A DNA stretch of 64,000 bases from a bacterium (GTDB lineage: Bacteria; Patescibacteriota; Minisyncoccia; Phycocordibacterales; Zambryskibacteraceae), in the NCBI GenBank assembly GCA_030649135.1, contig JAUSGI010000004.1, positions 34,089 to 98,088 of the forward strand. Direction: 5' to 3'. Numbering within the stretch: position 1 is the first letter of the stretch; each line of letters opens with the position of its first letter. The position numbers and the translations under genes are program-made. Under the pieces are notes generated by a model. That model was not told the origin of the DNA and searched no databases. It was given only the letters and a program-made list of their open reading frames with translations. Below, piece by piece: positions 16,889 through 54,520 of the stretch.

Positions 16889-16982
16889 CTTTTAATACGG
16901 AAAATTTGACATTGTGATTAGTTTGTGACAGAGTGAAAGTAGACGTACGGCCCTGCGGGCCAAATTCAAGGAGGACACTATC

Positions 16983-17249
16983 ATGTTGCGTTGGGGTGCT
17001 ATGCTCTTCATCGGCGTGCTGATCTTTCTGTGCGGGGTGTTTGTGTCAGACAGGTGGGTGGTCGTCGGTAAGGCAGAGGCCATATCATCCGGCCGTCCAC
17101 ACTGTCAGGCGTACATGGACCACGCCGTTCGGGCGGTCCAGGAAAGTGAGCATCAGTATGGAGCGCCGAACTACGCGAAAGCAGTAGCATCGACGGCCTG
17201 GAGTGCCATCTACCGTAACTGCATGGGGGGGGCCCTACTAGTCCGGTAA
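16983..17249 (+). CDS. G+C-rich ORFan (88 aa) with N-terminal hydrophobic segment
   Basis: compositionally anomalous vs flanks; RBS AAGGAGG upstream; hairpin+T-run downstream (~17290..17330). Confidence 0.35.
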   Translation: MLRWGAMLFIGVLIFLCGVFVSDRWVVVGKAEAISSGRPHCQAYMDHAVRAVQESEHQYGAPNYAKAVASTAWSAIYRNCMGGALLVR

Positions 17250-17433
17250 GGGACTTCCAATGCGCTAATCTTTTTTCATGTTCGCCGCCGGTCTGCTTAC
17301 CCAGACCGGCTTTATTATTTCTTACTTTGAAGATTGCACATTCAGAATTTTCGGTTGACGAATTTTATATTAAGTCTTATAATATAGGAAGGAACGAACA
17401 CGAGTTAACCCTCTATCCATAAAGGGGGAAGAG

Positions 17434-17715
17434 ATGAAAAAGGTTATCGTCCTCTTACTGCTTCTCGGCACCGATTACTGGATTGACCAAGACAACCGAA
17501 TCATCTTCGGCAGGACGCCGAAGATCGTGAACGAGATTTGCTTCATGAGGGGAGGGGCGTTTTTCGGAAAAAACGGCAGAAGGCTCGTCTGGGCCGACGG
17601 CTGTCATGACCCGTGGGACGATGTAATGATTCTCCCGCTCGAGGCCCGGAGCCCCGAGCACTACATTCACAGGCACGAACTCAAGCACCGTCTCGACGGT
17701 GCTTGGCATGACTGA
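17434..17715 (+). CDS. G+C-rich ORFan (93 aa), signal-peptide-like N-terminus
   Basis: anomalous composition; followed by CCCCGGCACGCACGCGTGCCGGGG-TTTT terminator. Confidence 0.35.
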   Translation: MKKVIVLLLLLGTDYWIDQDNRIIFGRTPKIVNEICFMRGGAFFGKNGRRLVWADGCHDPWDDVMILPLEARSPEHYIHRHELKHRLDGAWHD

Positions 17716-17732
17716 CAATGAGGGAGCTGGAC

Positions 17733-17760
17733 CCCCGGCACGCACGCGTGCCGGGGTTTT
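17733..17760 (+). terminator. rho-independent terminator
   Basis: perfect GC hairpin CCCCGGCACG/CGTGCCGGGG followed by TTTT. Confidence 0.55.
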
Positions 17761-17903
17761 CGCTGGATTGACTATTTCTGCCCTTTTGTATACCATAGCC
17801 CTTACGCGTTAACGTTTGTTGGTACTTTGATATTTTCTTCATAGACCATATAGCGGTTTAGTGCGTTAAAACATTAATATCTATTCAATAATAATTTACT
17901 AAT

Positions 17904-19097
17904 ATGGCAGCAGAATTTGATCGCTCCAAACCGCACATCAACGTAGGCACCATCGGCCACGTTGACCACGGCAAGACCACTCTTACCGCGGCTATTCTTA
18001 ATGTGCTTCACCGCGCAGGCAAGAATGCCACGATTAAGAGCGTTGACCAAATCGATAACTCTCCGGAAGAAAAAGCTCGGGGCATTACCATCGCCCTTTC
18101 CCACTCGGAATACGAGACCGACTTGCGCCACTACGCACACGTTGATGCTCCCGGCCACGCGGACTACATAAAGAACATGATTACCGGTGCCGCCCAAATG
18201 GACGGAGCTATTCTCGTGGTTGCCGCTACCGATGGTGTGATGCCTCAGACTCGCGAACACATTCTGCTTGCCAAACAGGTTGGAGTGCCGAAGATTGTAG
18301 TTTTCCTCAACAAGTGCGACATGGTTCCCGACAAGGAACTCATTGCTCTAGTCGAAGAAGAAGTTCGCGACCTCTTGAAGAAATATGACTATGACGGTGC
18401 CAATGCGCCGATTATCCAAGGTTCGGCCCTTAAAGCTCTGGAAGCCACCGGTATTGACGACGAATGGTCAAAGAAAATCTTGGAACTTACAGATGCTCTC
18501 GACACCTATTTCCCAATTCCGGTGCGCGAAACCGACAAGCCATTCCTCATGCCTATTGAAGACATCTTCTCCATTGAAGGCCGCGGCACGGTTGTGACCG
18601 GTCGTATCGAGCGAGGCAAGGTGAAAGTGGGTGAAGAAGTCGAAATTGTGGGTATCAAGGATACTGCCAAAACTACGGTGACGGGTATCGAGATGTTTAA
18701 CAAGTCTCTCCAAGAGGGTCTGGCTGGAGATAATGCCGGCGTTCTCTTGCGAGGTGTGAAGAAGGAAGATTTGCACCGAGGACAAGTCTTGTCCAAACCT
18801 GGTTCCGTTACCCCTCATACCAACTTTACTGCCGAGGTCTACATTCTGAAAAAGGAAGAAGGTGGTCGACACACGCCATTCTTTACCGGCTACAAACCGC
18901 AGTTCTACATTCGTACTACTGACGTAACCGGAGAAGTTACTTTGGCTGAAGGTGTAGAGATGGTTATGCCCGGAGATACCGCCACCTTTACGGTTAAGCT
19001 GGTTGCGCCTGTCGCTCTCGAAAATGAACAGCGCTTTGCCATCCGCGAAGGTGGTAAGACTGTCGGAGCCGGCGTGGTTACCAAAGTCATCGCGTAA
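17904..19097 (+). CDS. tuf: elongation factor Tu
   Basis: [22 protein letters not shown]; full-length EF-Tu. Confidence 0.97.
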
Positions 19098-19102
19098 ATT
19101 AC

Positions 19103-19495
19103 GTGCCCAAAAAAGTACCTCTAAAACCAAAAAGGGTTCTTAAACCTAAAGTTCCTAAGGCTCCCAAAGTTCCCAAAGCGGAAGAAGTAACCTCGCGTCT
19201 GCGTATCCGAGTGATGGCTTATGAGTCCAAGCTTTTGGACCTCTCGGTCAAACAAATCATAGACACAGCACTCCGTTATGACGCCAAGGTGCAAGGTCCG
19301 ATTCCTCTGCCAACGGGAATCAAGAAATACACGGTTAATCGTGCCGCATTTATCTACAAAAATGCGCGTGAGCAGTTCGAGATGCGGATTCACAAGCGGT
19401 TAATCGATATTCTGAATCCCACTCCCAAGATTATCGAGTCGCTCACCAACTTGAGTTTGCCGAGTGGGGTCAACATTGATGTCAAGCTCATATGA
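19103..19495 (+). CDS. rpsJ: 30S ribosomal protein S10 with Lys/Pro-rich N-terminal extension
   Basis: conserved S10 core starts at ~RLRIRVMAYESKLLD; ~28 aa KPK-rich extension precedes it. Confidence 0.85.
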   Translation: MPKKVPLKPKRVLKPKVPKAPKVPKAEEVTSRLRIRVMAYESKLLDLSVKQIIDTALRYDAKVQGPIPLPTGIKKYTVNRAAFIYKNAREQFEMRIHKRLIDILNPTPKIIESLTNLSLPSGVNIDVKLI

Positions 19496-19965
19496 AAAAG
19501 CTTATTGCCAAGAAGGTAAATATGACCCAAATTTTCGGCGAAACCGGGGAGGTTTACCCTGTGACTGTGGTCATGCCAGTAGAAAAAGGTCAGACCTTAA
19601 GTACTGATTCCCAAGGTCTGACCTTGGATACTGGCGACGATTTCCAGGAGGGTGAAATGGTCAATGTCTCCGGTACATCGAAAGGCAAGGGTTTCCAGGG
19701 AGTAGTTAAGAGGCACAAGTTTGAAGGCGGCCGCCGCTCGCACGGACAGAAACATTCCGAGCGTGAAGCGGGTTCCATCGGCGGCGGCGGCCGCGCGGGA
19801 GGCCGGGTCATCAAGGGTATGCGCATGGCTGGTCGGATGGGCAACGAGCGAGTGACGGTCAAGAACCTGAAAATTATCAAGATTCTTCCCGAAACACGAG
19901 AAATCTTCATTCAGGGAGCCATTCCCGGCCGACGAGGCAGTACGGTTGAGATTAAAGCCAGATAA
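19492..19965 (+). CDS. rplC: 50S ribosomal protein L3 (short)
   Basis: MTQIFGE.G..YPVTVV and GKGFQGVVKRH motifs. Confidence 0.9.
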   Translation: MKKLIAKKVNMTQIFGETGEVYPVTVVMPVEKGQTLSTDSQGLTLDTGDDFQEGEMVNVSGTSKGKGFQGVVKRHKFEGGRRSHGQKHSEREAGSIGGGGRAGGRVIKGMRMAGRMGNERVTVKNLKIIKILPETREIFIQGAIPGRRGSTVEIKAR

Positions 19966-20617
19966 AATTATGGACGCAACAGTCTATAGCATCGATGGCA
20001 AGAAGTCCGGTACGGTATCCCTGCCGGAGAACGTCTTCGGTATTCATTGGAACGCTGACTTGGTCAAACAAGTGGCAGATTCACTGCTTTCAGCAAAGCG
20101 TAAAAATGTTGCCCACACCAAGGACCGAAGCGAGGTGCGGGGTGGAGGCAAGAAGCCGTGGAAACAGAAAGGTACCGGTCGCGCGCGGCACGGTTCCATC
20201 CGTTCTCCCATCTGGGTGGGTGGCGGTGTGACCGGTGGCCCGAGAAATGAAAAAAATTTCGAGCGTAAGGTTTCAAAGAAAATGAGGACCAAGGCACTCT
20301 ACACCATTCTCTCCCGCAAATGGCATGATGGCGAAATACTTTTTGTTGATTCGGTGGCGCTTGCCGAGCCCAAGACGAGAGTGGCCGTGAAGGCCCTCCA
20401 GTCTCTCTCTGGCATCAAGGGGTTTGAAAGTATTTTTTCGAAGAGAAACAACGCAACAGTTATCGCTCTGTCGGGTAAAAATAAGGAAACCGAACGCGCC
20501 TTCGATAATCTCGGTAATATTGAAGTGGTCGAAGCAAGAAACTTAAACCCTCTCTTGCTGCTTGAGCACAAATATTTAATAATCGAGAATCCCAAATTGA
20601 TTTATGGCAAATCTTAA
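19946..20617 (+). CDS. rplD: 50S ribosomal protein L4
   Basis: order and KxGTGRARHGSIRSPxWxGGG motif. Confidence 0.9.
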   Translation: MRLKPDKIMDATVYSIDGKKSGTVSLPENVFGIHWNADLVKQVADSLLSAKRKNVAHTKDRSEVRGGGKKPWKQKGTGRARHGSIRSPIWVGGGVTGGPRNEKNFERKVSKKMRTKALYTILSRKWHDGEILFVDSVALAEPKTRVAVKALQSLSGIKGFESIFSKRNNATVIALSGKNKETERAFDNLGNIEVVEARNLNPLLLLEHKYLIIENPKLIYGKS

Positions 20618-20897
20618 TTTAAAGCCGAATAATGTTCTCTTGCGCCCTCGTATTACCGAGAAGGCCGCTTTGGGAGCCGACAAGTCCAATGTCTATGTTT
20701 TTGAGGTGACAACGGACGCCACCAAAAAGTCCATCAGCGCTTCCGTTCGCGATGCTTACGGAGTGACGCCCAAACAGGTGCATGTTGCCGCCATTCCTTC
20801 CAAACGAGTTTTTGTCCGGGGCAAAAGAGGGGTAAAGGGTGGAGGCAAGAAAGCGTATGTCTATCTGAAGAAGGGGGATAAAATCGAACTAATATAA
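20604..20897 (+). CDS. rplW: 50S ribosomal protein L23
   Basis: order; L23 N-terminal pattern (LRPRITEKA, FEV...A.K..I). Confidence 0.85.
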   Translation: MANLNLKPNNVLLRPRITEKAALGADKSNVYVFEVTTDATKKSISASVRDAYGVTPKQVHVAAIPSKRVFVRGKRGVKGGGKKAYVYLKKGDKIELI

Positions 20898-21736
20898 TGA
20901 AAAAGTACCGACCAACAACAGATTCCCGTCGCCATATGTCTGGCATAGACTTCCGCAAGATTCTTACTTCAGATAAACCTGAAAAGTCTCTGACTAGTGG
21001 CTTCAGGCGTGGTACCGGTCGGAATAATCGTGGTCGTATTACCACTCGGCATAAAGGCGGGGGTCATAAACGTCTTTTTCGGGAGGTTGATTTTTCCTAC
21101 GATAAGTATGACGTACCCTTTACCATAAAGACCATCGAATATGATCCCAATCGTTCCGGTTTTATCGGGCTCGCGGTCTACCGAGACGGGGAGAAGAGAT
21201 ATGTGCTTTTGCACAATAGCGCGCGAGTCGGGCAAACTTTTGTGGTTTCCGAGAATGCTCCACAAGTGCCTGGTAATCGTTTGCCTCTCGGCAATATCTC
21301 TGTCGGCACTTTTGTTTATAACGTTGAACTTAAACACAAGGGTGGCGCGAAAATTGCCCGCTCTGGAGGTGATTATGTAGAAATATTGGCTAAGGAGGGG
21401 GGCTTTGTTGATTTGAAAATGCCTTCAAGCGAGGTGCGTAAAGTGCCTATTAACGCCTGGGCCTCTATCGGGGAAGTTTCTAATAATGAAAATCGTTTGG
21501 TAACCATCGGCAAGGCCGGTCGTTCACGTTGGCTTGGTATCCGCCCACACGTCCGCGGTACCGCTATGAATCCGGTAGACCATCCGCACGGAGGTGGAGA
21601 AGGCCGTTCCGGCCGAGGTCGCAGGCGTGCTATTTCTTACTACGGTAAACCGACTGGCAAGGGTCAGAAATCTCGCCGAACCAAAAAATATTCAAACAAG
21701 TTTATGGTCAGTCGCCGAAAAGTAGGGAAGAGGTAG
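20897..21736 (+). CDS. rplB: 50S ribosomal protein L2
   Basis: GRNN.GRIT.RH.GGGHKR and RG.AMNPVDHPHGGGEG motifs. Confidence 0.95.
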   Translation: MKKYRPTTDSRRHMSGIDFRKILTSDKPEKSLTSGFRRGTGRNNRGRITTRHKGGGHKRLFREVDFSYDKYDVPFTIKTIEYDPNRSGFIGLAVYRDGEKRYVLLHNSARVGQTFVVSENAPQVPGNRLPLGNISVGTFVYNVELKHKGGAKIARSGGDYVEILAKEGGFVDLKMPSSEVRKVPINAWASIGEVSNNENRLVTIGKAGRSRWLGIRPHVRGTAMNPVDHPHGGGEGRSGRGRRRAISYYGKPTGKGQKSRRTKKYSNKFMVSRRKVGKR

Positions 21737-21742
21737 GTAATG

Positions 21743-21771
21743 TTGACGCCAGCTTCTCGTTAGTGTATAAT
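21743..21771 (+). promoter_or_regulatory. sigma70-like promoter of G+C-rich ORFan
   Basis: TTGACG-17 nt-TATAAT followed by RBS GGAGGGGGG before ATG 21809. Confidence 0.5.
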
Positions 21772-21808
21772 GTAGGTAGGAGTACCAAGAATTACCAGGA
21801 GGGGGGAC

Positions 21809-22234
21809 ATGACAGTTGCGGGAACGTTGTTTAACAAGTTGTTGAGGGTGTGCGGCAAGCGGGTGGTCGACTCCGCTAGCAACAGGAAGGAGTTCGTCGA
21901 CAACGGCACCTTGTTTCCGGTGCCCAACATCGGCCAGGAGATGTACCTATTCCCGGTCACTCGCCGTCTCACCGGTGATGAGGCAGAGGACGCCTATGCA
22001 TCTTTTGGCCTCGAAGCTGCCGGGTGGGAGGAGCTCGCTCTGGCCAATGACGCCAACCCTGCCATGGCGTCAGAGAGACCCAACGCCACTCAATGGCGGG
22101 ATCGGGGGCGGTGGTGCTACATCACCTTCTCCGAGCCTGGGGAGAACTATCTCCTTCGGGCGGGGAAGGTCGATAGGTGGGACCCCGGGTGGTGGCTCGC
22201 AGGTCGTCCCATCAAGTGGGACGAGTACCGGTAA
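21809..22234 (+). CDS. G+C-rich ORFan (141 aa) inserted between rplB and rplJ
   Basis: strong compositional contrast; own promoter and terminator. Confidence 0.4.
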   Translation: MTVAGTLFNKLLRVCGKRVVDSASNRKEFVDNGTLFPVPNIGQEMYLFPVTRRLTGDEAEDAYASFGLEAAGWEELALANDANPAMASERPNATQWRDRGRWCYITFSEPGENYLLRAGKVDRWDPGWWLAGRPIKWDEYR

Positions 22235-22244
22235 TTCGGGGTCT

Positions 22245-22282
22245 GGGCGTTCGGACAGTCGTCCGAACGCCCTTTTCGTTTG
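22245..22282 (+). terminator. rho-independent terminator
   Basis: GGGCGTTCGGAC-AGTC-GTCCGAACGCCC hairpin + TTTTCGTTT. Confidence 0.6.
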
Positions 22283-22391
22283 TATACTTGCATTAAATTT
22301 TTATTCCTGTAAGGTATTTCTCCATAAGGTCAAAGACAGTAGGCATCCATAAGCCCTACCGAGACTAAACCACTCTGGCCTTATTAAATTA

Positions 22392-22880
22392 ATGGCCATT
22401 TCGAAAGCCAAAAAGGGAGAAGTGCTCACGAAGCTTAAGGCGGCCTTCAAAAGTGCCAAGTCTTTGGTGTTCATTAACTTTAAGGGCTTGAATGTGGCCA
22501 ATGCCACTCAAATGCGCCGTGCTCTCAAAAGTGAAGGTATTTCTTACACGGTTGCCAAAAAGACTCTAACCAACTTAGCGCTTGAGGGAGAGAAGTTTCA
22601 GGGCACAGCACCAGTGCTCGAAGGTGAGTTAGCTCTTGCGTGGGGAGAAGACTTGGTGGCTCCGGCTCGCGGAGTTTATGGTTTCCAGAAAAAGTTTCCG
22701 GAGAGTCTCAAGATTATGGGTGGAGTCTTCGAAGGTCGTTTTATGACGGCAGTCGAAATGGAGGAGATTGCCCAGATTCCTACGCTCGAGGTGCTTCGCG
22801 GCAAGTTCGTCAATATTATTAATTCCCCGATACAGCGCTTTGTGATTGGGCTTAATGAAATTAGTAAGATTAAGAGTTAA
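22392..22880 (+). CDS. rplJ: 50S ribosomal protein L10
   Basis: L10 N-terminal pattern (KxxVxxLxxxxxxAxSxVxxxYxGLxVxxxxxLR). Confidence 0.85.
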   Translation: MAISKAKKGEVLTKLKAAFKSAKSLVFINFKGLNVANATQMRRALKSEGISYTVAKKTLTNLALEGEKFQGTAPVLEGELALAWGEDLVAPARGVYGFQKKFPESLKIMGGVFEGRFMTAVEMEEIAQIPTLEVLRGKFVNIINSPIQRFVIGLNEISKIKS

Positions 22881-22884
22881 AAAC

Positions 22885-23298
22885 ATGGAAGATACACAAA
22901 ATACAAATACCGAAATAGTTAAGGAAGTTCCTACAAAGTTCAAAAAGATTGTTGAAGAAGTTGAGACCATGTCGGTACTTGAACTCAATGAACTGGTGAA
23001 AGTTTTCGAAAACAAGTTCGGAGTTTCTGCTACAGCTGTAGCCGCGCCCGCCTCCGCGCAAGGCTCCGGCGAGGCAATAGAAGAGAAATTGACAGCAAGC
23101 GTGGAGCTCACTAATAGCGGTGCCAACAAAATCGCCATCATCAAGGTGGTCAAAGAAGTGCTCGGCCTCGGTCTCAAAGAAGCTAAGGACCTCGTCGATG
23201 CTGCTCCCTCGATGCTTAAAGCAGACATGAAGAAAGAAGAGGCAGAAGCGCTCAAAAAGCAGATAGAAGACGCTGGTGGTAAAGTGACGCTCAAGTAG
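22885..23298 (+). CDS. rplL: 50S ribosomal protein L7/L12
   Basis: C-terminal KVIKEVRxxTGLGLKEAKDLVDxAP...EAEALKKQLEDAGA-like domain; start moved to Met after rplJ stop (ORF track begins at 22846). Confidence 0.85.
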   Translation: MEDTQNTNTEIVKEVPTKFKKIVEEVETMSVLELNELVKVFENKFGVSATAVAAPASAQGSGEAIEEKLTASVELTNSGANKIAIIKVVKEVLGLGLKEAKDLVDAAPSMLKADMKKEEAEALKKQIEDAGGKVTLK

Positions 23299-23310
23299 TA
23301 GAATGGGCGC

Positions 23311-23868
23311 ATGAAATCCGTTTCCCACATCTTCGGCGGAGAGGCCAAAGTAAAGATTATGCGCCTGTTTATCTTTAACCCAGGTCTCACTTTTACTTCC
23401 GCTGAAGTGGCCCACCGTGCCAAAGAGAGACCTCATACGGCCCGCAAGGAACTTAGAATTCTCGCCAAGGCGGGTCTCATCAAGCGACGCACGAAGGGCT
23501 TTGCTCTCAACTCTTCCTACCTGTATCTTCCCGCGATTGAAAATTTTCTGATAGATGCCACGCCCATCACGGAGAAAGAGATAATCCAGAAAGTTTCTCG
23601 CGCCGGCAACATCAGACTTGTCTTAATTTCCGGTGTCTTTCTACATGACCGTGATTCTCGTGTGGACATCCTCGTCGTGGGGGACCATCTCAAAGGAGCC
23701 AAACTCTTGTCGGCTATATCATCGATTGAAGCTCTCTTGGGCAAGGAGTTGCGTTATGCCGCTTTCGAGACCGCCGATTTCCGATATCGTCTGGGTATCT
23801 ACGACAAGCTTATTAGAGATATTCTGGACTACCAGCACGAGAAGATTCTTAATAAATTGGGTATTTAA
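23311..23868 (+). CDS. hypothetical protein, possible winged-helix N-terminus
   Basis: ORF with good context; no confident family. Confidence 0.3.
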   Translation: MKSVSHIFGGEAKVKIMRLFIFNPGLTFTSAEVAHRAKERPHTARKELRILAKAGLIKRRTKGFALNSSYLYLPAIENFLIDATPITEKEIIQKVSRAGNIRLVLISGVFLHDRDSRVDILVVGDHLKGAKLLSAISSIEALLGKELRYAAFETADFRYRLGIYDKLIRDILDYQHEKILNKLGI

Positions 23869-24028
23869 CCCCGCTTCACCCCGCCTTGGCGGGGCAAGCG
23901 GCGGGGCAGGATTATCCACACCCCAATAAACCTCGTATTTTATAGGTGTATAATGAATCGCGTACCCCTTTTAGAGTGGTCACAATTAGAAGCTAAGTGC
24001 ATTTGCACAGACATCGAGCTAAGAATAT

Positions 24029-24727
24029 ATGTTATTAAACACATGGGGAGAAGTGCTAACCCTTTCCTTCCAGAATCTTTGGGTAGGAGTGGTTAACTTT
24101 GTCCCGAACCTTGTTATTGCTATCGTCATCCTTATCCTAGGATGGTTAGTTGGCGCGCTTATCGGCCGAGCAATTTGGCAAGTGTTCAAGTCTCTGAAAG
24201 TTGATGACGCTCTTCGCCAGGCGGGATTCGACTCTTTTGTGCGTCGTGGAGGTATTGACCTTGATTCCGGCGCGTTTGTTGGTGGTTTGGTGAAGTGGTT
24301 TGTGATAGTGATGTTTTTAGTGGCAGCTCTGGATGTTTTAGGCCTTTCACAAGTCAACTTCTTCCTCCAAGACGTAGTACTTGGCTATTTGCCTCGTGTA
24401 CTCGCTGCGGCTTTGGTTCTCTTGGTGGCTGGCGTTATCGGTGATGTCACCGGACGTGTGGTTGTCACAGCAGCTCGGACGGCAGGTATTGATTCAGCAC
24501 ATTTTGTGGGTGCTGTGGCCAAGTGGGCCATCTGGATTTTCGCCATTCTCGTAGCTCTTTCCCAACTGGGTATTGCTGCGGCGTTTAGTCAGACTCTCTT
24601 CACAGGCATTGTCATCGCGGTCTCTCTCGCCCTCGGTCTCTCCTTCGGTCTCGGCGGACAGGAAGCGGCATCTCGCTTCCTCGAAAAGCTTCGCGGAGAA
24701 ATGAGTGGTAAAAACCACAACGGTTAA
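24029..24727 (+). CDS. integral membrane protein (repeated conserved-TM-helix type)
   Basis: 4-5 predicted TM helices with repeated WxVxxLVxxLxxxLxVLGLxQ-like units. Confidence 0.4.
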   Translation: MLLNTWGEVLTLSFQNLWVGVVNFVPNLVIAIVILILGWLVGALIGRAIWQVFKSLKVDDALRQAGFDSFVRRGGIDLDSGAFVGGLVKWFVIVMFLVAALDVLGLSQVNFFLQDVVLGYLPRVLAAALVLLVAGVIGDVTGRVVVTAARTAGIDSAHFVGAVAKWAIWIFAILVALSQLGIAAAFSQTLFTGIVIAVSLALGLSFGLGGQEAASRFLEKLRGEMSGKNHNG

Positions 24728-24769
24728 CCTCGAGGTATTACTTAGCTAGATAATACCCGGATAATCTGT

Positions 24770-24797
24770 AGGGAAGAGCCCGTTTTCGGGCTCTTTT
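24770..24797 (+). terminator. rho-independent terminator
   Basis: GAAGAGCCCG-TTTT-CGGGCTCTTT hairpin + T-run after 24727 stop. Confidence 0.5.
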
Positions 24798-24805
24798 CTG
24801 TTCTA

Positions 24806-24834
24806 TTGACTTTTAAACCTCATTGTGATATGAT
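24806..24834 (+). promoter_or_regulatory. sigma70-like promoter of G+C-rich ORFan
   Basis: TTGACT-17 nt-TATGAT, RBS AGGAGAG before ATG 24909. Confidence 0.45.
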
Positions 24835-24908
24835 TAGGGCAGGATGGGCATTGGCCCATAAGACGATCTTCGTTTACTACCTTCAAGGCTACACCTTAGG
24901 AGAGTGTC

Positions 24909-25418
24909 ATGAGCGTAGTGGAGAAAGCCGAACTCTCGCCAATCCTGGGTAGCGTACCGGTCGTGATGTTTTTCTTCAACGTCACCGACAAGAGGCTCGT
25001 GCCTTGGTGGGCGAAGACCGTGTCGGGCCTCGAGCAGAAGCCGGCCACCGAAGGTCAGCCCTCCGGTGTCGAGTTGATCAGGGGCAAGCACGTGAATCTC
25101 TATTCCGTTCTCGACGAGATCGGAGAGCAGGGATTCATTCCGGTCCGGCTCCTCGTCATCGAGAGGGGTCAAGGTAGGGTTCGTATGGCCCTGGTGTGCG
25201 TTCACTCGGATCACCTGAAAGAGGGCGATCGACGGATGCCCCGGAGAGAGGAAGCTGATGTACGGGGGCTTCTCAAGAAGCTCTGGGACGTTCGGGTTCA
25301 TCGTAACCCGGGCGAGCACGGAGGGAACTTCATCATCGGGTGTGCCTACCCGGCGATGGGGAATTCCAGGGGCAAGCTGCTCGTCGCCGACGGGCAGTTC
25401 CGGTTGGAGACGAAGTAG
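24909..25418 (+). CDS. G+C-rich ORFan (169 aa) inserted upstream of rpsS
   Basis: compositional contrast; own promoter/terminator. Confidence 0.4.
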   Translation: MSVVEKAELSPILGSVPVVMFFFNVTDKRLVPWWAKTVSGLEQKPATEGQPSGVELIRGKHVNLYSVLDEIGEQGFIPVRLLVIERGQGRVRMALVCVHSDHLKEGDRRMPRREEADVRGLLKKLWDVRVHRNPGEHGGNFIIGCAYPAMGNSRGKLLVADGQFRLETK

Positions 25419-25429
25419 CTGTGAGGTCT

Positions 25430-25470
25430 GGACCGGGGGCGCAACGCGCGCTCCCGGTCCTTTACTTTTT
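25430..25470 (+). terminator. rho-independent terminator
   Basis: GGACCGGGGGCGC...GCGCTCCCGGTCC hairpin + TTTACTTTTT. Confidence 0.55.
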
Positions 25471-25525
25471 ACGTTGATTTATATACTATATCCCGCATAG
25501 CTCGCTCGAGCTTTTTCATTTAATA

Positions 25526-25867
25526 ATGACCAGGTCATCTAAAAAAGGTCCATACGTCGACCCTCGAGTACTCAAGAAGTTAGAGGGCAAAAGCCCCACG
25601 ACCGCTGGGGTTATAAAGACGTGGTCGAGGGCCTGCCAAATTGCTCCGGAGATGGTTGGTTTTACCTTCGGGGTTCATAATGGTAAGGACCACGTAGCGG
25701 TGTTTGTCAGCGAAGACATGGTCGGACATCGCCTTGGCGAGTTTTCGCTAACGCGCAAATTTACAAGACACGGCGGTAGAATGCAGAAGGACCTTGAACA
25801 GAAGCAAAAGGAGTCCGAAATTGCTGCCGCTAAGGCAGTCAAGGGTGCGGCGGAATCAAAGAAGTAG
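25526..25867 (+). CDS. rpsS: 30S ribosomal protein S19 with Lys/Ala-rich C-terminal extension
   Basis: KKGPYVD..L and GHRLGEF..TR.F.GH motifs. Confidence 0.9.
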
Positions 25868-25892
25868 ATTCAAGATTTAGAATTTAAGATTT

Positions 25893-26228
25893 ATGAATGA
25901 AGCAACAGCACAACTTAATAACTACCGACAATCTCCACGCAAGGTGCGTTTAGTGGTGGATACTCTGCGTGGCAAAAAAATAGAGGAAGCAATTACTCTA
26001 CTCTCGTTTATCCCAAGGCGTTCCGCCCTGCCACTTCAGAAACTTTTGACCTCGGCTTTGGCAAATGCCAAAGACCTTGCTTTGCCTACGGAAGATTTAA
26101 TTGTCAAAGAGATTAGAGTTGATGCCGGTGGCACCCTTTACCGCCGCCGCCCGCGTTCGAAAGGTATGGCCAACCCGATTCGTAAAAGGACGTCGCGTAT
26201 TCGCGTAACGCTTGCTCCCAAGAAATAA
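25893..26228 (+). CDS. rplV: 50S ribosomal protein L22
   Basis: order; SPRK.RLV.D.IRG pattern. Confidence 0.9.
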   Translation: MNEATAQLNNYRQSPRKVRLVVDTLRGKKIEEAITLLSFIPRRSALPLQKLLTSALANAKDLALPTEDLIVKEIRVDAGGTLYRRRPRSKGMANPIRKRTSRIRVTLAPKK

Positions 26229-26886
26229 TATGACACACACAGTACATCCATATTCACATCGTCTTGGTATCCTGCGGGATTGGAAATCGCGTTGGTTTGC
26301 GCCGAAGGGTAAATACAAATACATTTTGCGTGGTGATATTTTGATTAGGCAATATTTGGAGAAGAAACTTAAAGGATTTTTCGTGGCCGATGTTGAAATA
26401 GAGAGAAGTGAGAAGTCCTTGCGCATTATTGTCAGCTCCTCTCGTCCGGGCATGATTATCGGCCGTCAAGGTGACGGCGCGGAATTGCTTCGTAAAGAAA
26501 TTAAGTCATTCCTTTTGAAACATAAATTACTTGAGGAAAAAGTGGACGTCAGGCTCGACATCAAAGAAATTAAATCGGCCGAGACCAATGCCGCCATCGT
26601 GTCGCAGATGATAGTCGAGGGATTGGAGAAACGTTTGCCGTTCAGAAGGGTGATGAAGCAGATGCTTGAGAAGGTCATGGCTAATCGCGACGTGCTCGGG
26701 GTGCGAATCTTTCTGGCTGGCCGCTTGGGTGGTGCCACTATGAGCCGCACGGAAGACCGCAAGCTCGGCCGTATTCCTTTGCAGACTCTGCGCGCTGATG
26801 TTGACTACGCTCTTACCAAAGCAGTAATGCCCTACGGCACTATTGGGGTCAAGGTTTGGATATATAAAGGCGATATATTTAAATAA
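26212..26886 (+). CDS. rpsC: 30S ribosomal protein S3
   Basis: HP..HRLGI...W.S.W KH N-term, GRLGGAEIAR-like motif (GRLGGATMSR). Confidence 0.95.
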   Translation: MLPRNNMTHTVHPYSHRLGILRDWKSRWFAPKGKYKYILRGDILIRQYLEKKLKGFFVADVEIERSEKSLRIIVSSSRPGMIIGRQGDGAELLRKEIKSFLLKHKLLEEKVDVRLDIKEIKSAETNAAIVSQMIVEGLEKRLPFRRVMKQMLEKVMANRDVLGVRIFLAGRLGGATMSRTEDRKLGRIPLQTLRADVDYALTKAVMPYGTIGVKVWIYKGDIFK

Positions 26887-26887
26887 C

Positions 26888-27304
26888 ATGCTCTTTCCCA
26901 AAAAAGTTAAACATCGAAAGTGGCACACCATGCGAAGGAATCCATCGAGGGTCTCCGTGGCCACTCGTGGACTCTCGGTAGCGTTCGGCTCGTATGGATT
27001 GAAGGCACTCGGCTCCGCTCGTATCCGCTCCAATCAAATTGAATCTTCGAGGAAAGTCTTATCTCGCTCTGTAGGTAAGACCGGTCGCTTCTGGATTCGA
27101 ATTTTCCCGGACATGCCTTATACCACCAAGCCTGCGGAAGTGAAGCTCGGTAAGGGCAAGGGAGATTTGGCAGGTTATGCGGCGCCGGTTCTCCCCGGTA
27201 GAATCATTTTTGAGGTAGACGGTATCAGCGAGGTAGATGCCCGGGAAGCGCTTCGTAAAGCGGGTACTAAACTACCGGTCAAGACTAAAGTAGTAGCCAG
27301 ATAG
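26888..27304 (+). CDS. rplP: 50S ribosomal protein L16
   Basis: MLFPKKVKHRK N-term; start reset to Met after rpsC stop. Confidence 0.9.
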   Translation: MLFPKKVKHRKWHTMRRNPSRVSVATRGLSVAFGSYGLKALGSARIRSNQIESSRKVLSRSVGKTGRFWIRIFPDMPYTTKPAEVKLGKGKGDLAGYAAPVLPGRIIFEVDGISEVDAREALRKAGTKLPVKTKVVAR

Positions 27305-27328
27305 TTCGACAAGCTCACCATAAATAAT

Positions 27329-27511
27329 ATGAAGAAAACTATCTACATCGGCAAATCAAAACAGGATTTGGTAAAAGCCCTCGGAGAGAGGCGAGAAATT
27401 TTGCGTAAACTAAGATTCGGAGCTTCCGGTTCCAAGACCCGCAATGTGAAAGAAGGTATGGTTATCAGAAAAGATATTGCCCGTATCATGACTGAACTTA
27501 ATAAAGCGTAA
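27329..27511 (+). CDS. rpmC: 50S ribosomal protein L29
   Basis: position and size; ELR..RFQ.ATGQLENT-like pattern (weak). Confidence 0.7.
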   Translation: MKKTIYIGKSKQDLVKALGERREILRKLRFGASGSKTRNVKEGMVIRKDIARIMTELNKA

Positions 27512-27512
27512 T

Positions 27513-27761
27513 ATGGAAACTGACAAAACAAAAAAGCCCCAAATTTTTTCCGGCACGGTAGTCTCGGATAAAATGAAAGACACTATCGTGGTCTCGGTCG
27601 AGCGCTATGAAAAACATCCCCGATATTCCAAATTCATCAGGCGACGTAAGAAATTCAAGGTGCATGACGCTGGTAATACCGCCAAGGTGGGTGATAAAGT
27701 ACAAATCATCGCTACTAGGCCGATATCGAAGGATAAAAGTTTCAAATTGTTAACTTCCTAA
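27513..27761 (+). CDS. rpsQ: 30S ribosomal protein S17
   Basis: G.VVSDKM.KT.VV.VER...HP.Y.K..KR.KK..AHD pattern. Confidence 0.9.
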   Translation: METDKTKKPQIFSGTVVSDKMKDTIVVSVERYEKHPRYSKFIRRRKKFKVHDAGNTAKVGDKVQIIATRPISKDKSFKLLTS

Positions 27762-27764
27762 GCC

Positions 27765-28136
27765 ATGATTCAACCACAATCCATTGTGCAAATAGCAGAC
27801 AATTCCGGGGCAAAACTCGGTCGCGTTTTCAAGGTGCTTGGAAGCTCAAAAAAACGCTACGCTTCCATCGGAGAGCTGGTGGTGCTCTCGGTTCAAAAGG
27901 CCGAACCCAGGAAGCTGGTAAAGAAAAAGGATATTCTTTACGGGATAGTGGTGAGACAAAGGGCGCCTTTCCGACGCAAGGATGGTACGTATGTACGTTT
28001 TGACGAAAATGCCGTGGTTATCCTGGATAGTACCAAAAAGGAGCCAATGGCGGGCCGAGTTTTCGGCCCGGTACCCAGAGAAATTGGCGAAATGGGATTC
28101 CAGAAAATTATTTCTTTAGCGCCGGAAGTAGTTTAA
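27765..28136 (+). CDS. rplN: 50S ribosomal protein L14
   Basis: MIQ..S.L.VADNSGAK N-term. Confidence 0.95.
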
Positions 28137-28141
28137 ATATC

Positions 28142-28366
28142 ATGCATGTAAAAAAGGGAGACAACGTAATAGTTTTAACGGGAAAAGATAAAGGTAAGAT
28201 TGGTAAAATCTTGCGCGCCTTTCCAAAACAAGACCAAGTGCTGGTGGAAGGGGTGAATACCAAAAAGGTTCACGAACGGCCGAAAAAGAGTGGCGCCAAA
28301 GGTACCATTATCGAAAAGAATTTTCCCATTCACGTCTCTAATGTAAAAATCCATGGAAAATCTTAG
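28142..28366 (+). CDS. rplX: 50S ribosomal protein L24
   Basis: KKGD.V.V..GKDKGK.G.V KOW motif. Confidence 0.85.
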
Positions 28367-28865
28367 AGAAAAATCAAAAACGATTCCGGGTTATAAAAAC
28401 CCCATGCAGGCGCCACGAGTTTTGAAGGTGGTGGTCTCTTCCGGAGTCGGTTCATTTAAAGACAAGAACAAATTTAAAGTAGTGGAAGACCGTCTGGCGC
28501 GTATTACCGGACAGAAAGCAGCCCCACGAGGAGCTAAAATTTCGATCGCTACTTTCAAATCTCGACAAGGAGACATTGTGGGCTACCAAGTAACTTTGCG
28601 TGGCAAGCGTATGTACGATTTTTTGGACAGATTAGTACATCTTGCCCTTCCGCGCACCAAAGACTTCCGTGGTATTTCCCCGAACGCTGTTGATGAGATG
28701 GGCAATTATACTTTGGGTATCAAAGAACACAACATTTTTCCCGAAACTTCCGACGAAGAGCTTAAAGACGTCTTCGGTCTCGCTGTGACCATCGTCACTA
28801 CCGCCAAGTCCAAAGAAGAAGTGCTCGCTTTCCTTGCCCATCTCGGTTTCCCGTTCAAGAAGTAG
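28353..28865 (+). CDS. rplE: 50S ribosomal protein L5
   Basis: order; L5 central/C-terminal motifs (RGISP...[15 protein letters not shown]). Confidence 0.9.
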
Positions 28866-28945
28866 AAGTTATCTACATTATATAAAATAGAAAAATCCCC
28901 GCGCACAGTGCTCTGTGCGCGGGGGTCTGAAATTGTGACGGATAG

Positions 28946-29542
28946 CTATGAGTCCGACAGGATGCGAACATCCGCTTCTGCCGTCGGGCCCTTTTGTGTC
29001 AGGAAAGCGATGGCGCGGGCGAGTAACGCCGGGCTGTCCCGGAACATGGATAGTCCCATGTTGCAGAGCTTGCAGAGCAATGCCATTCTTCTCGCGCCGT
29101 AGTGCGCCGCCCCATAGAGCGAAAGTGGCAATGCCTGCCCAATCTCATCGCATGAGGTTTCGGGCTGGCTGCAGATCGCGCACCGACCACCCTGCTTCTT
29201 GAAGAGTTCATTGTAGTGACCGTTCATTTTCACGGCAGGGTGCGGATGGGTCTGCGCAAGTGGCGGAGCTGCTGATATGACAGCAGGCAATCCCGTGCTC
29301 ACACCATCGTGGAGCTTGCAGTTTTGTCTGGTCCTGATGCTACCCCCATATGGGTATGTCCCAAACTCCTCGATTGGCCTGTTTTCTCCGCACTCCTTGC
29401 AAGGTCTTGTTTCCATACCAACCTGCTTTCCTTCCTGAACGTGAAGGTTGCAATCTCGCTGTGCACGACCTCCCGCACCAAGCTTGAAACTGTCCAATGG
29501 CCTCATTTTCTCGCACTTAATGCAGTATCTTTTCCCTCCCAT
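28946..29542 (-). CDS. G+C-rich Cys-rich protein (zinc-ribbon repeats; C-terminal CxxC...LLCxxCNxGL segment reminiscent of endonuclease VII/HNH-like nucleases)
   Basis: multiple CxxC pairs (CIKC, CKEC, CAIC, CKLC); opposite strand to spc operon; GC-hairpin terminator at ~28896..28925. Confidence 0.4.
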   Translation of the reverse strand: MGGKRYCIKCEKMRPLDSFKLGAGGRAQRDCNLHVQEGKQVGMETRPCKECGENRPIEEFGTYPYGGSIRTRQNCKLHDGVSTGLPAVISAAPPLAQTHPHPAVKMNGHYNELFKKQGGRCAICSQPETSCDEIGQALPLSLYGAAHYGARRMALLCKLCNMGLSMFRDSPALLARAIAFLTQKGPTAEADVRILSDS

Positions 29543-29707
29543 GCCATGCTCCCTTCTTTAGGGACGGCAACCAATATGGTCGTCTGAACTTGAGTCTGGC
29601 GCGAATCCTACATTGTGTCCACGGGTATGGCAAGTCTAAGGTTTGACAATACCCCTTTCAGTTGATAAGCTGAAACGCGAGCTTTTCGAAGCTTTTTTAG
29701 TTTAATT

Positions 29708-29893: not shown

Positions 29894-29899
29894 TTTCAT

Positions 29900-47506: not shown

Positions 47507-47584
47507 GCCATTGTACTCTAGAGCCGGAATCCGCCCAAAGAAAATGCCCCACCCTCCGGGAGGGTGGGGCGCGCTTGCGGGTGG

Positions 47585-48268
47585 TCAGTACGGGAAGTAT
47601 CCCCGTGTATAGAACAAAATCCTGTCCGGCATGGCCTTGTCCGCATTCGCTAAGAGGTACTTCTCGAGGGCTCCCGCCGTATTGCAGACGGAAGAGTCTT
47701 TGATGCAGAACTCATGGACCCAGGTCATGCCACCGTCGCTGAAGGCGACATGCGTTGCCGTGCCGGGTATGTCATGCTCGAGGGCGCCACGCGCGTCGAG
47801 ACGTCCGCCAGCGGACATCTCGTCCATGTCTTTCTTGCTCATCCGCAGAGACATGTTCACCTGAAGCCAGCCATCAGGGCTGGTATAGGCGAACCAGTGG
47901 AACTTCTCGCCATTGTACCAACCGACGCCCCAGCCGACCGACCTGTCGAGAGCTCGACCTTTGTCATCGTGGGTCTCGAAGGCAAGGAACTGATACCTTA
48001 CCCAGGGGTGCAGTTGGGGTGCCAATGCCCGGAGCCGTTGGTCTTGCAGGTCCATGATAATGGTGTCGTTGCGCGCCTTCTCGGTAGGGGTGAGCTCCGG
48101 TGCCGTCTCGAGTTGAGCGGCATTTGCCGAGGCAGCATTCGCCCGGGGGGCGGCTGCCCGTATGACCGGTTCGGGCTGTGGCGACGGCGGTGTTGAGCTG
48201 ATACTTTGGTGCACTACGACTGTGAGTAGGCCTAAGCTAACAAGCAGTGCGCCACGCGACAGTGTCAT
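47585..48268 (-). CDS. G+C-rich secreted hypothetical protein (227 aa)
   Basis: signal peptide + Pro/Ala-rich linker; compositional anomaly; terminator hairpin CCCCACCCTCC-CGG-AGGGTGGGG downstream (47540..47565). Confidence 0.4.
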   Translation of the reverse strand: MTLSRGALLVSLGLLTVVVHQSISSTPPSPQPEPVIRAAAPRANAASANAAQLETAPELTPTEKARNDTIIMDLQDQRLRALAPQLHPWVRYQFLAFETHDDKGRALDRSVGWGVGWYNGEKFHWFAYTSPDGWLQVNMSLRMSKKDMDEMSAGGRLDARGALEHDIPGTATHVAFSDGGMTWVHEFCIKDSSVCNTAGALEKYLLANADKAMPDRILFYTRGYFPY

Positions 48269-49171: not shown

Positions 49172-49447
49172 ATGGATGAAGGTGAGCAGGCAACCGAGTT
49201 CTGGTTGGACAAGAATCTCAGTTGTACCGAGTTCATCAAGGCGTTTGAGTCTCACTTTCAGGGAGGTCGGGTCGAAAGCCTATCCTTGGTGCGGGTTGCC
49301 AAGCCGGGGTACATGCTTTTCCATCTGAGTGTGCCGCTCGAGAGAAAAGGGGAGCTCCTCGTGTTTCTCCATGAGTACGCCGAGACACGCGACGCCGACA
49401 GCGATTGGAAGACGGCGGGCGTCCATCCATTCAATCTATTTTCATAA
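49172..49447 (+). CDS. small hypothetical protein, paralogue of 50949..51242
   Basis: shared EF(I/V)KAF..(H/Y)F.GG motif and near-identical upstream RBS context (GAGGAGGTGT.ATATG); G+C-richer. Confidence 0.35.
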   Translation: MDEGEQATEFWLDKNLSCTEFIKAFESHFQGGRVESLSLVRVAKPGYMLFHLSVPLERKGELLVFLHEYAETRDADSDWKTAGVHPFNLFS

Positions 49448-49501
49448 CCACGCGTCGGACGGAGCATCGCGCTCCGTCCGACGCGGTTTTGTTTTTAGTA
49501 A

Positions 49502-50436: not shown

Positions 50437-50502
50437 TATAAATAGAAAATCGGGTTCCGCGAGGCGCGGAACCCGATTCGAATCGTCGGCCAGTCTTCTA
50501 TG

Positions 50503-50859
50503 CTACAGGACGGTCCACTCGTCTGGGTCGGGCTGCTTGAAGCGCCCAGCGAAAGGGCCATCTGGCCGCCGCATGGCGTGCTGTTTGTGGGGAATGACGT
50601 GTTCCCCAAGCGCGCGAAGAAGCTCGTGCGGGGAACTCGCATACCCGGCGCTGACTTTCCGCTCGAAGCGTCGCCCAAGGTGCAGGACGAATGCTTCGGA
50701 GTTGCCCATCTTGATATCATCGTCCTCTTCCCAGATGAACACTCTTCGCTTTACCGTGGGGTTGCCCGGCACTGGGTCGACACCTACATAGGCATCGACG
50801 ATATACCCCAGTACCTCACCTTTTCCCAACCAATCGTAGAAGCCGATCTCGTTGGCCAT
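50503..50859 (-). CDS. G+C-rich ORFan (118 aa)
   Basis: compositional anomaly; hairpin AAATCGGGTTCCGCG-AGG-CGCGGAACCCGATT downstream. Confidence 0.3.
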   Translation of the reverse strand: MANEIGFYDWLGKGEVLGYIVDAYVGVDPVPGNPTVKRRVFIWEEDDDIKMGNSEAFVLHLGRRFERKVSAGYASSPHELLRALGEHVIPHKQHAMRRPDGPFAGRFKQPDPDEWTVL

Positions 50860-50948: not shown

Positions 50949-51242
50949 GTGATAAGGTATGAGAGGAGGTGTGATATGAGAGATGATATGCGGGTGAGCG
51001 AGTTCAGATTAGATGAAGATTTCGACCGTGACGAGTTCGTAAAGGCGTTCAAGACCTACTTCGAGGGAGGTGATGCCAAAGATCTGGAAGTTGTTCCCGA
51101 CGCGATTTTGTTTTATAAAGGACGAGTGTCGCTTATTCTACTATTCGCACGAATTAGAGATGTAGAGGGGGGGGATTGGGTTGACAATTCAAATAATATA
51201 TCATACACTTTTGAAAGAGCCACATGCGTGGCTATGCTCTAA
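50949..51242 (+). CDS. small hypothetical protein (paralogue of 49172..49447), C-terminal part overwritten by operator-repeat copy 4
   Basis: N-terminal 60 aa alignable to 49172 product; repeat copy at 51132..51160 lies inside the reading frame. Confidence 0.3.
   Translation: MIRYERRCDMRDDMRVSEFRLDEDFDRDEFVKAFKTYFEGGDAKDLEVVPDAILFYKGRVSLILLFARIRDVEGGDWVDNSNNISYTFERATCVAML
51132..51160. promoter_or_regulatory. operator-like inverted repeat copy 4 (variant core ATTCGCACGAAT)
   Basis: sequence match to copies 1-3. Confidence 0.4.
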
Positions 51243-51270
51243 ACCCGAAACCACTTAATGAGGGAGGCAG

Positions 51271-51951: not shown

Positions 51952-51955
51952 GACA

Positions 51956-52009
51956 TCGCCCCGCCTGATGAATCGCCCCGCGGCTCATCAGGCGGGGCGA
52001 TTTTATTTT
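51956..52009 (+). terminator. rho-independent terminator
   Basis: long GC hairpin CGCCCCGCCTGATGA...TCATCAGGCGGGGCG + TTTTATTTT. Confidence 0.55.
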
Positions 52010-54518: not shown

Positions 54519-54520
54519 AT

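Follow-up and report, generated by a model that had tools for sequence, protein, structure and literature searches.

Why do genes of deviant composition, each with what looks like its own promoter and terminator, lie between the ribosomal protein genes of a bacterium with a tiny genome? This question is raised by a 64,000-nucleotide stretch (the window) of contig JAUSGI010000004.1 (positions 34,089 to 98,088 of the forward strand; assembly GCA_030649135.1), which belongs to the Patescibacteria, also called the candidate phyla radiation (CPR). Five GC-rich open reading frames (ORFs A to E) occupy its ribosomal region and four more (F to I) lie at 47-52 kb. A sequence-only reading had described them as ORFans, acquired piecemeal, plausibly from a high-GC host, and inserted into the str/S10/spc ribosomal operons. 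We found that the feature is real and no artefact: within the ribosomal supercluster of a clade of CPR bacteria, hot spots hold cassettes that resemble morons. We consider it reasonably probable that the spacers at transcription-unit boundaries in the str-S10-spc cluster of Paceibacteria are swap sites for insulated accessory cassettes, whose source would be a GC-rich gene pool of Patescibacteria.

These GC-rich ORFs match exactly the proteins of an NCBI metagenome-assembled genome (MAG; locus tags Q7R69_) and Logan assemblies of SRR13727527. Scans with ribosomal protein L2 placed its nearest relatives among Paceibacteria/Parcubacteria (Patescibacteria, CPR) MAGs. The related loci and contigs compared with the window are labelled with L-numbers; L003, L083, L084 and L085 are the closest, with L2 identities of 89-91%. 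Ribosomal genes were placed by tblastn in about 160 related Paceibacteria loci. Promoters and terminators were called as consensus matches and are predictions from the sequence. The features on which the argument turns are the following, where GC3 is the G+C fraction at third codon positions.

16906..17310, plus strand: cassette A, with a -35 element TTGACA (16906-16911), a weak -10, a Shine-Dalgarno sequence AAGGAGG and a terminator at 17287-17310
16983-17249, plus strand: ORF A, 88 amino acids (aa), N-terminal transmembrane helix (by eye), GC 0.59
17355..17762, plus strand: cassette B, promoter TTGACG-17-TATAAT at 17355-17383, terminator at 17733-17756 followed by a T-run
17434-17715, plus strand: ORF B, 93 aa, N-terminus resembling a signal peptide (by eye), GC 0.55, GC3 0.72
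17768..17903, plus strand: native tuf promoter (TTGACT-17-TACCAT) and conserved 5' untranslated region (UTR), which directly follow the fusA stop codon in L085
21743..22279, plus strand: cassette C, promoter TTGACG-17-TATAAT at 21743-21771, Shine-Dalgarno sequence AGGAGG, terminator at 22245-22272
21809-22234, plus strand: ORF C, 141 aa, GC 0.61, GC3 0.76
22287..22391, plus strand: promoter-like sequence of rplJ (CTTGCA-17-TAAGGT) and leader, aligned between the window, L083 and L003 and kept with or without a cassette
22392..24727, plus strand: rplJ, rplL, a 185-aa helix-turn-helix (HTH) protein gene and a 232-aa mechanosensitive (MS)-channel-type transmembrane protein gene (MS232), all of ordinary GC
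24806..25460, plus strand: cassette D, promoter TTGACT-17-TATGAT with TG extension at 24806-24834, terminator at 25430-25460
24909-25418, plus strand: ORF D, 169 aa, GC 0.60, GC3 0.76, with a 5' UTR of about 70 nucleotides (nt) that holds a hairpin
25461..25525, plus strand: native promoter-like sequence of rpsS (TTTACT-17-TACTAT) and leader, conserved in relatives without D
28897..29633, minus strand: cassette E, promoter TTGCCA-17-TAGGAT at 29633-29605, terminator at 28924-28897
29542-28946, minus strand: ORF E, 198 aa, endonuclease VII-like, GC 0.55
29643..29707, plus strand: promoter-like sequence of rpsZ (TTGACA-17-TAAGCT), divergent from the E promoter; its equivalent in L003 is TTGAAT-17-TAAACT
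47546..48268, minus strand: gene F (ORF 48268-47585), 227 aa, signal peptide (by eye), Pro-rich, GC 0.60, terminator at 47570-47546, upstream of recG
49172..49485, plus strand: gene G (ORF 49172-49447), 91 aa, GC 0.54, GC3 0.66, terminator with a 15-bp stem at 49451-49485
50447..50859, minus strand: gene H (ORF 50859-50503), 118 aa, GC 0.59, GC3 0.71, terminator at 50479-50447
51181..52001, plus strand: gene I (ORF 51271-51951), promoter TTGACA-17-TACACT at 51181-51209, 226 aa, GC3 0.80, terminator at 51955-52001
8956-10416, minus strand: purB-like lyase gene, GC 0.55, matching Lyase_1 and ASL_C, and phrog_1703 at 1e-44

The composition of these genes had been judged by eye, and measurement bore the judgement out. 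The window as a whole has a GC of 0.457. A reference set of 53 genes (25 for translation and 28 others), assembled without the tested ORFs and without the low-GC island at 53-64 kb, gave a GC of 0.466±0.037 (maximum 0.53) and a GC3 of 0.497±0.067 (maximum 0.59). The nine ORFs A to I and the purB-like gene have GC of 0.54-0.61 and GC3 of 0.62-0.80, and each lies above all 53 references (z=1.9-3.8 for GC and 1.8-4.6 for GC3). The separation is complete, with a Mann-Whitney U of 530 out of a possible 530 (10x53; p=3e-7). GC1 and GC2 are elevated as well, and the called frames show the periodicity GC3 > GC1 > GC2. The promoter, UTR and terminator-flank DNA of the cassettes has a GC of only 0.40-0.49, indicating that the excess belongs to the coding bodies alone. 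The preference for G/C-ending codons was also seen in the relative synonymous codon usage, which for ATC is 2.2 against 1.0, with AAG, GAG, AAC and TAC preferred as well. The codon adaptation index (CAI) towards ribosomal protein genes is 0.63-0.73 in the ORFs, compared with 0.75±0.03 in ribosomal genes and 0.72±0.03 in other genes. Since the ORFs fall below the ribosomal protein genes, they follow a separate compositional regime; translational optimization as the cause of high GC3 was ruled out by the lower CAI and by differing two-fold codon preferences.

Each ORF had been said to follow a sigma-70-like promoter and to precede a GC-rich hairpin with a T-run. The second statement applies to all nine genes, with GC-rich stems of 9-15 bp and a T-run directly after each of A to I. 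The first holds well for B, C, D and I, which score 10-11/12 against the consensus, and less well for E (9/12) and for A, which has a perfect -35 and a poor -10. Between 13 and 32 kb there are 21 promoter-like sites, and the best three (11/12, 11/12 and 10/12 plus a TG extension) stand directly upstream of B, C and D. The terminators give a similar picture: of the six strongest hairpins (stems of 9-13 bp with 7-11 GC pairs), five follow A to E immediately and on the matching strand. F, G and H carry terminators of comparable strength, the hairpin after I reaches -46 kcal/mol, and upstream of H we found TGGTATAAT, a predicted extended -10 promoter. These consensus matches support A to E as autonomous promoter-gene-terminator units in the spacers of the str/S10/spc cluster. 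The sequence-only reading saw genes of the same kind recur at 47585..48268, 49172..49447, 50503..50859 and 51271..51951; they do share the composition, and 47585..48268 and 50503..50859 lie on the minus strand, which had not been marked. Another hairpin with a T-run, with a 16-bp stem that includes 7 GC pairs, lies on the minus strand, antisense to the rplC coding sequence that contains it (19586-19625).

How old and how stable is this arrangement? A comparison of the orthologous junctions showed that the sites of A+B, C and E are empty in relatives whose L2 is about 89-91% identical. At fusA|tuf, where the window has A+B, L085 has a spacer of 144 nt in which the fusA stop codon abuts the tuf promoter, and L084 has a gene for the toxin HicA and, ahead of it, a small ORF where a HicB antitoxin would stand. 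We read this small ORF as HicB from its sequence and position; it has no Pfam match. At rplB|rplJ, the site of C in the window, the spacer is empty in L083 (107 nt, stop codon followed by the rplJ promoter and leader) and in L087 (167 nt). In other relatives the same site is filled by unrelated genes: a GC-rich cassette for a YkuD L,D-transpeptidase with its own TATAAT promoter and hairpin in L003, MazE-MazF in L084, and a Cys-rich ORF on the opposite strand in L085. The rplE|rpsZ spacer measures 842 nt in the window, including E, and 26, 70 and 83 nt in L133, L085 and L003, respectively. Between MS232 and rpsS, the window has D and L083 a 71% identical homologue, while five relatives have only 145-166 nt; D is absent from L003, L084, L085, L087 and L133. 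Thus A+B, C and E are lineage-specific, gained in the lineage of the window or lost in its sisters, and occupancy turns over rapidly.

The cassettes always lie between the upstream stop codon and a downstream promoter-like sequence (of tuf, rplJ, rpsS or rpsZ) that is kept at empty and filled sites. Because these promoter-like sequences are kept without a cassette, the units were already separate at these junctions in this clade. The ORFs had been taken to split normally contiguous operons, and their terminators to force re-initiation for the genes downstream. Neither statement is supported, because the junctions are unit boundaries already, expanded at the same three to four places throughout the clade, and the downstream genes have promoter-like sequences at empty sites too. 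Nor are the ORFs alone in the gap between rplB and rpsS: C and D do lie there, together with the rplJ-rplL-HTH-MS232 block. The genes rplJ and rplL normally adjoin rpoBC. The block, of ordinary GC, was found between rplB and rpsS in 8 of 115 related loci; it is older and common to a subclade.

Across the related loci, gaps of more than 300 nt were found at fusA|tuf in 79% (n=53), at rplB|rpsS in 68% (n=114), at rplE|rpsZ in 62% (n=73) and at rpsG|fusA in 45% (n=40). Other junctions were mostly expanded in 0-4%; the exceptions were x31768|secY (12%) and rpsJ|rplC, whose 40% is possibly inflated by short high-scoring segment pairs. The 296 gap ORFs are mostly singletons; several families reappear at different junctions in different genomes. 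Among the gap ORFs of relatives, HicA, MazE/MazF, a RelE/YafQ-like toxin and YkuD were identified by Pfam. A Cys-rich gene of 120 aa occurs at rplB|rplJ in L085 (10880-11242, minus strand) and at rplL|HTH in L087 (2421-2780, plus strand); the two copies are 63% identical and each has a different terminator hairpin. Its presence at different junctions and in opposite orientations is direct evidence of cassette relocation. The same few intervals between core genes are variably occupied by unrelated content, as in hot spots of horizontal gene transfer (HGT). The cassette boundaries carry neither direct repeats, shared or flanking, nor att-like sites, and no recombinase gene was found there. Insertion of the transposon, integron or att type was ruled out on the lack of direct repeats at the boundaries and of a recombinase gene.

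What do the cassettes encode? The label of ORFan proved apt for some and not for others. Gene C has no homologue among 5.8e9 proteins, and A, B, F and G have no match in Pfam, PHROG, NCBIfam or PADLOC and no relative in about 175 related loci; they form only singleton clusters or clusters from the same sample at 90% identity. Gene A lacks an NCBI annotation and is known only from a Logan gene call. In contrast, D falls in a family of about 25 clusters, E in a Pfam family, H has a 46% identical homologue and I has 655 homologues. G has a paralogue 1.5 kb away (50949-51242; 32% identity over 80 aa) whose composition is ordinary (GC 0.44, GC3 0.46). The C-terminal region of protein B holds an HELKH motif, similar to HExxH, without a family match, and this may be due to chance. 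A search for defence systems gave no significant PADLOC match, and NCBIfam gave none for the cassette genes.

Gene E is a member of the Pfam family Endonuclease_7 (PF02945, E=5.3e-8, 33.1 bits with a cut-off of 23.6) and also matches phrog_2633 (E=1.4e-15). It is related, at about 30% identity, to endonuclease VII/HNH genes that stand alone in the genomes of T7-like phages and actinophages. When E was aligned with four phage homologues, Cys121/124/157/160 and Asn161 were found to be kept and DH(D/C/N)H to be replaced by YGAA. We assume that the DHxH motif, the four-Cys zinc site and the Asn have the roles in E that they have in T4 endonuclease VII. As the catalytic DHxH motif is replaced, we infer that E is probably what remains of a homing-type endonuclease, inactive or put to another use.

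These observations can be joined into one account, which is the one we favour. The str-S10-spc supercluster would consist of several transcription units, with tuf, rplJ, rpsS and rpsZ each served by a sigma-70-like promoter of its own, and the short spacers between an upstream stop codon and the next promoter would be permissive hot spots that gather small accessory genes. Each cassette would be monocistronic and transcriptionally insulated, made up of a strong promoter, a strong Shine-Dalgarno sequence, the ORF and a strong intrinsic terminator. Terminators and private promoters may be the price of admission, in that only insulated units would be tolerated beside dosage-sensitive ribosomal genes. 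The cassettes would be swapped by recombination through the highly conserved ribosomal genes on either side, and their source would be a gene pool associated with Patescibacteria and rich in GC. In the window the occupants would be two small membrane or secreted proteins (A and B), an ORFan (C), a member of a small family specific to Paceibacteria and linked to rpsS (D) and a protein of the endonuclease VII type (E); in the closest relatives they appear to be HicAB, MazEF, the RelE/YafQ-like toxin, YkuD, the Cys-rich protein, or nothing. We take the GC excess to mark a GC-rich gene pool that circulates among Patescibacteria and/or their mobile elements.

Two readings of the GC excess remain, namely re-seeding from such a pool and gene-by-gene maintenance of GC. 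According to the second, which we regard as a distinct minority possibility, the GC-rich genes, or at any rate D, H and I, would be long resident and vertically inherited, with a GC3 of 0.7-0.85 actively held against AT drift. The proposed causes are selection on the mRNA (for stability, for structure or for avoidance of AU-rich sites of endoribonucleases or toxins) or GC-biased gene conversion (gBGC) at recombining accessory loci, and what looks like a cassette would be the look of any monocistronic gene in these genomes. The evidence for it comes mainly from D and I. The D family comprises about 25 clusters among 1.84 billion representatives, and its homologues in L083, L172, L173 and L007 stand, as in the window, directly upstream of rpsS. 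Their identities to D (71, 50, 42 and 27%) fall with the divergence of the flanks, and in the comparison with L083 dS is 0.65, about equal to that of the neighbour MS232, and dN/dS is 0.30. In the five genomes the GC/GC3 of D is 0.60/0.76, 0.57/0.72, 0.56/0.75, 0.61/0.74 and 0.53/0.52, whereas the flanks have a GC of 0.40-0.51.

Gene I behaves in a similar manner. It encodes an HD/PDEase-like phosphohydrolase (Pfam), and among its 655 homologues (E<=1e-5) the named ones are mostly from Patescibacteria. Linkage of I to recG was seen in three genomes (the window, L164 and L170), where the two proteins have diverged to a similar degree (71/69% for recG and 69/56% for I), and the promoter and terminator of I are recognizably homologous between the window and L164. 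The GC3 of I is roughly constant (0.66-0.84) across host baselines: 0.80-0.84 in four low-GC genomes, and 0.66 and 0.73 in the GC-rich Parcubacteria L170 and L171, where it matches the neighbouring genes. The 46% homologue of H, in L165, adjoins a homologue of I and is GC-rich as well. Maintenance of GC leaves unexplained why A+B, C and E are present in one genome and absent from its close relatives, and why they have no homologues. The CAI below that of ribosomal protein genes excludes classical codon selection, and the elevation of GC1 and GC2 also speaks against maintenance. As for gBGC, Lassalle et al. reportedly found in 2015 that its effects in bacteria amount to a few percent of GC3, compared with +0.25-0.35 here.

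The pool reading accounts better for the turnover of presence and absence and for the ORFan status, and maintenance accounts better for D and I. Several points weigh against the pool and the swap sites that we favour. D, H and I are GC-rich in seemingly vertically inherited homologues, which speaks for long residence more than for a recent arrival; under neutral amelioration, a foreign GC3 in these three genes should have disappeared by now. The GC3 of I is higher in the low-GC genomes than in the GC-rich Parcubacteria. No mobile element, phage contig or plasmid with any cassette turned up in our scans, and no recombinase, repeat or att site was found at the cassette boundaries. The promoters and terminators are predicted from consensus matches, and the ORFan label of A, B, F and G draws on profile libraries, 90% clusters and about 175 loci, which is weaker evidence. 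The two readings may also be joined, such that the fixed str-S10-spc spacers form a clade-wide exchange platform for insulated cassettes of one gene each, with toxin-antitoxin pairs, endonuclease relics and ORFans of novel fold as cargo, and D, H, I (perhaps also A to C) have held a GC3 of 0.7-0.85 over the long term in genomes of 40-48% GC; we find this combination rather doubtful. If GC3 were indeed held for so long, a gene-specific force would have to act, be it mRNA selection, GC-biased conversion or a GC-rich extrachromosomal pool that overwrites the chromosomal copies.

Recent, piecemeal acquisition from a high-GC host of an epibiont, for example one of the Actinobacteria, was the origin first proposed for these genes, and we now think it improbable. 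It would agree with a GC content and codon usage unlike those of the remaining genome, with the lineage-specific occurrence of A+B, C and E, and with the frequency of endonuclease VII genes of actinophages among the distant matches. Yet no homologue of a cassette gene was found in any non-CPR lineage: those of the supposed ORFans come only from contigs of the Patescibacteria type, as do most named homologues of I. Phage sequences match E and I with no more than 25-32% identity, and the hosts of these phages cover every GC content. In several other low-GC Paceibacteria, homologues of D, H and I are likewise GC-rich, with 42-71% identity and at conserved positions, so high GC is no mark of recent import from a high-GC host. 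Furthermore, the promoter and 5' UTR sequences are common to relatives. In a survey of aquifer Patescibacteria, HGT was found mostly within the phylum (PMC12455944).

Phages themselves were also considered as the origin. In PHROG, matches were limited to E, I and the purB-like gene. A tblastn search of 50,697 phage records reached only 23-32% identity, to phages of every host GC, and IMG/VR, scanned with C, I, J and the D profile, yielded no viral contig carrying them. A phage origin was ruled against on these three results. The purB-like gene had been tried as a tracer of the donor. Its counterpart in L085 (595-2019, minus strand) is only 34% identical although the ribosomal proteins are about 90% identical, and it is also GC-rich; the pair could be a xenologous replacement or paralogues. 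As the gene is merely a divergent member of the purB family, it was dropped.

That the cassettes are artefacts, either chimeric joins or spurious frames open in GC-rich non-coding DNA, seems most improbable: although GC-rich DNA has few stop codons, alternative ORFs overlap in every segment and A lacks annotation, the GC3 > GC1 > GC2 order in the called frames, the agreement of promoter, Shine-Dalgarno sequence and terminator with the called strand, the dN/dS and the confident structural model of D, the Pfam matches of E and I and the lack of Rfam matches in the segments all stand against it. Mis-assembly is unlikely in particular, as Logan contigs of SRR13727527 are 100% identical to the window over 16735-17812, 20594-22315 and 25534-30836 and thus reproduce the junctions fusA|A|B, rplB|C and rplE|E|rpsZ with an independent assembler, and the arrangement of cassette D was found again in four other samples. 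The ends of three Logan contigs (L178, L002 and L001, at 17812, 22315 and 25534), which might be held to favour chimeric joins, lie just downstream of B and C and at the D|rpsS boundary; they may reflect branching of the assembly graph caused by strain-level presence and absence of cassettes.

Which known elements do the cassettes resemble? A moron is defined by its own promoter and terminator, its deviant GC and its position between genes that are adjacent in relatives (PMC3594210). The likeness to the phage morons ('more DNA') of the HK97/HK022 type extends to the single gene with its own sigma-70 promoter and factor-independent terminator (predicted signals here), the deviant GC, the insertion between genes adjacent in relatives and a function that is often unknown. 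In contrast, our cassettes lie in a cellular chromosome within a ribosomal supercluster, with no phage structural genes nearby; D and I are old and conserved in position, and the neighbouring genes already have promoters of their own. As the neighbours are fusA, tuf and ribosomal protein genes and none is a phage gene, the cassettes are moron-like without being phage morons.

Chromosomal HGT hot spots between conserved core genes were reportedly described by Oliveira et al. in 2017. Such hot spots, or 'islets', share with the spacers the fixed intervals, the fast turnover and the toxin-antitoxin modules, and since no integrase is found there, homologous recombination in the flanks is the presumed route. 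They differ in that here the sites are inside str/S10/spc, that each holds one or two monocistronic cassettes rather than a multi-gene island, and that the cargo in the genome of the window is uniformly GC-rich. E resembles phage homing endonucleases (the seg/mob genes of T-even phages and the endonuclease VII/HNH genes of T7-like phages and actinophages) in being free-standing in a spacer between conserved genes and absent from close relatives; unlike them, it has YGAA in place of DHxH and lies in a bacterial chromosome. Integron cassettes are likewise small ORFan or toxin-antitoxin genes, one per unit, in a fixed place and variable among strains, but they are promoterless, with attC and intI, whereas the units described here have their own promoters and terminator hairpins with T-runs. 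Integron cassettes were excluded because there are no shared boundary repeats and no integrase in the interval and each unit has its own promoter. In the literature library that was searched, we found no paper on insertion into ribosomal protein operons of Patescibacteria.

Our findings suggest that the str-S10-spc cluster, a textbook case of frozen gene order, is permeable where it is divided into separate transcription units, and that in a large CPR clade accessory cassettes with a fast turnover are routinely present at three or four of its junctions. These junctions offer a simple, alignable place in which to look for strain-variable genes of uncultured organisms, such as toxin-antitoxin modules, endonuclease relics and novel small proteins. 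Binning and the prediction of genomic islands can also be misled by a compositional mosaic close to ribosomal genes. Predicted islands and transferred genes in Patescibacteria were reported to be enriched in ribosomal proteins and tuf (PMC12455944), which is what mosaics like this one would produce, and the mosaic may underlie that enrichment. The persistence of GC-rich families in low-GC genomes cautions against taking a deviation in GC as a sign of recent HGT.

Family D is a candidate for characterization in its own right, with a confident model, no structural match in PDB or BFVD and a fixed linkage to rpsS. An AlphaFold model built from an alignment of 26 sequences reached a predicted local distance difference test (pLDDT) of 92.8 and a predicted template modelling score of 0.86, compared with a pLDDT of 36 from an alignment of two sequences. 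Neither the structural comparison nor a profile search of PDB sequences gave a match. On the rather doubtful joint reading given above, family D would represent a new fold, coupled genetically to rpsS. The hairpin in the 5' UTR of D (24835-24908) has the arms ATGGGC...GCCCAT in the window and L083 and TAGGCA...TGCCTA in L172 and L173. Both of its arms vary from genome to genome. The stem may be conserved and regulatory; an automatic alignment of poor quality yielded no covariation that could be used.

The remaining observations concern the rest of the window. Rfam detected no known RNA gene in the GC-rich segments; the only hits were a transfer-messenger RNA and two transfer RNAs elsewhere. 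Two of these RNA genes are ordinary and unrelated to the cassettes.

38973-39381, minus strand: transfer-messenger RNA gene, 109 bits
45268-45342, minus strand: tRNA-Ile gene, anticodon TAT

The third, the tRNA-Ser gene at 60579-60668, is flanked by a low-GC island (0.31-0.38) at 53319-59000 and 61415-63874. By eye, the island encodes large proteins apparently of the restriction-modification/DNA-methylase type. The proteins at 58282-58896 and 61415-63280 have LexA-like N-termini that are 63% identical. Together with the GC-rich cassettes, this island indicates that the genome holds accessory DNA of both low and high GC.

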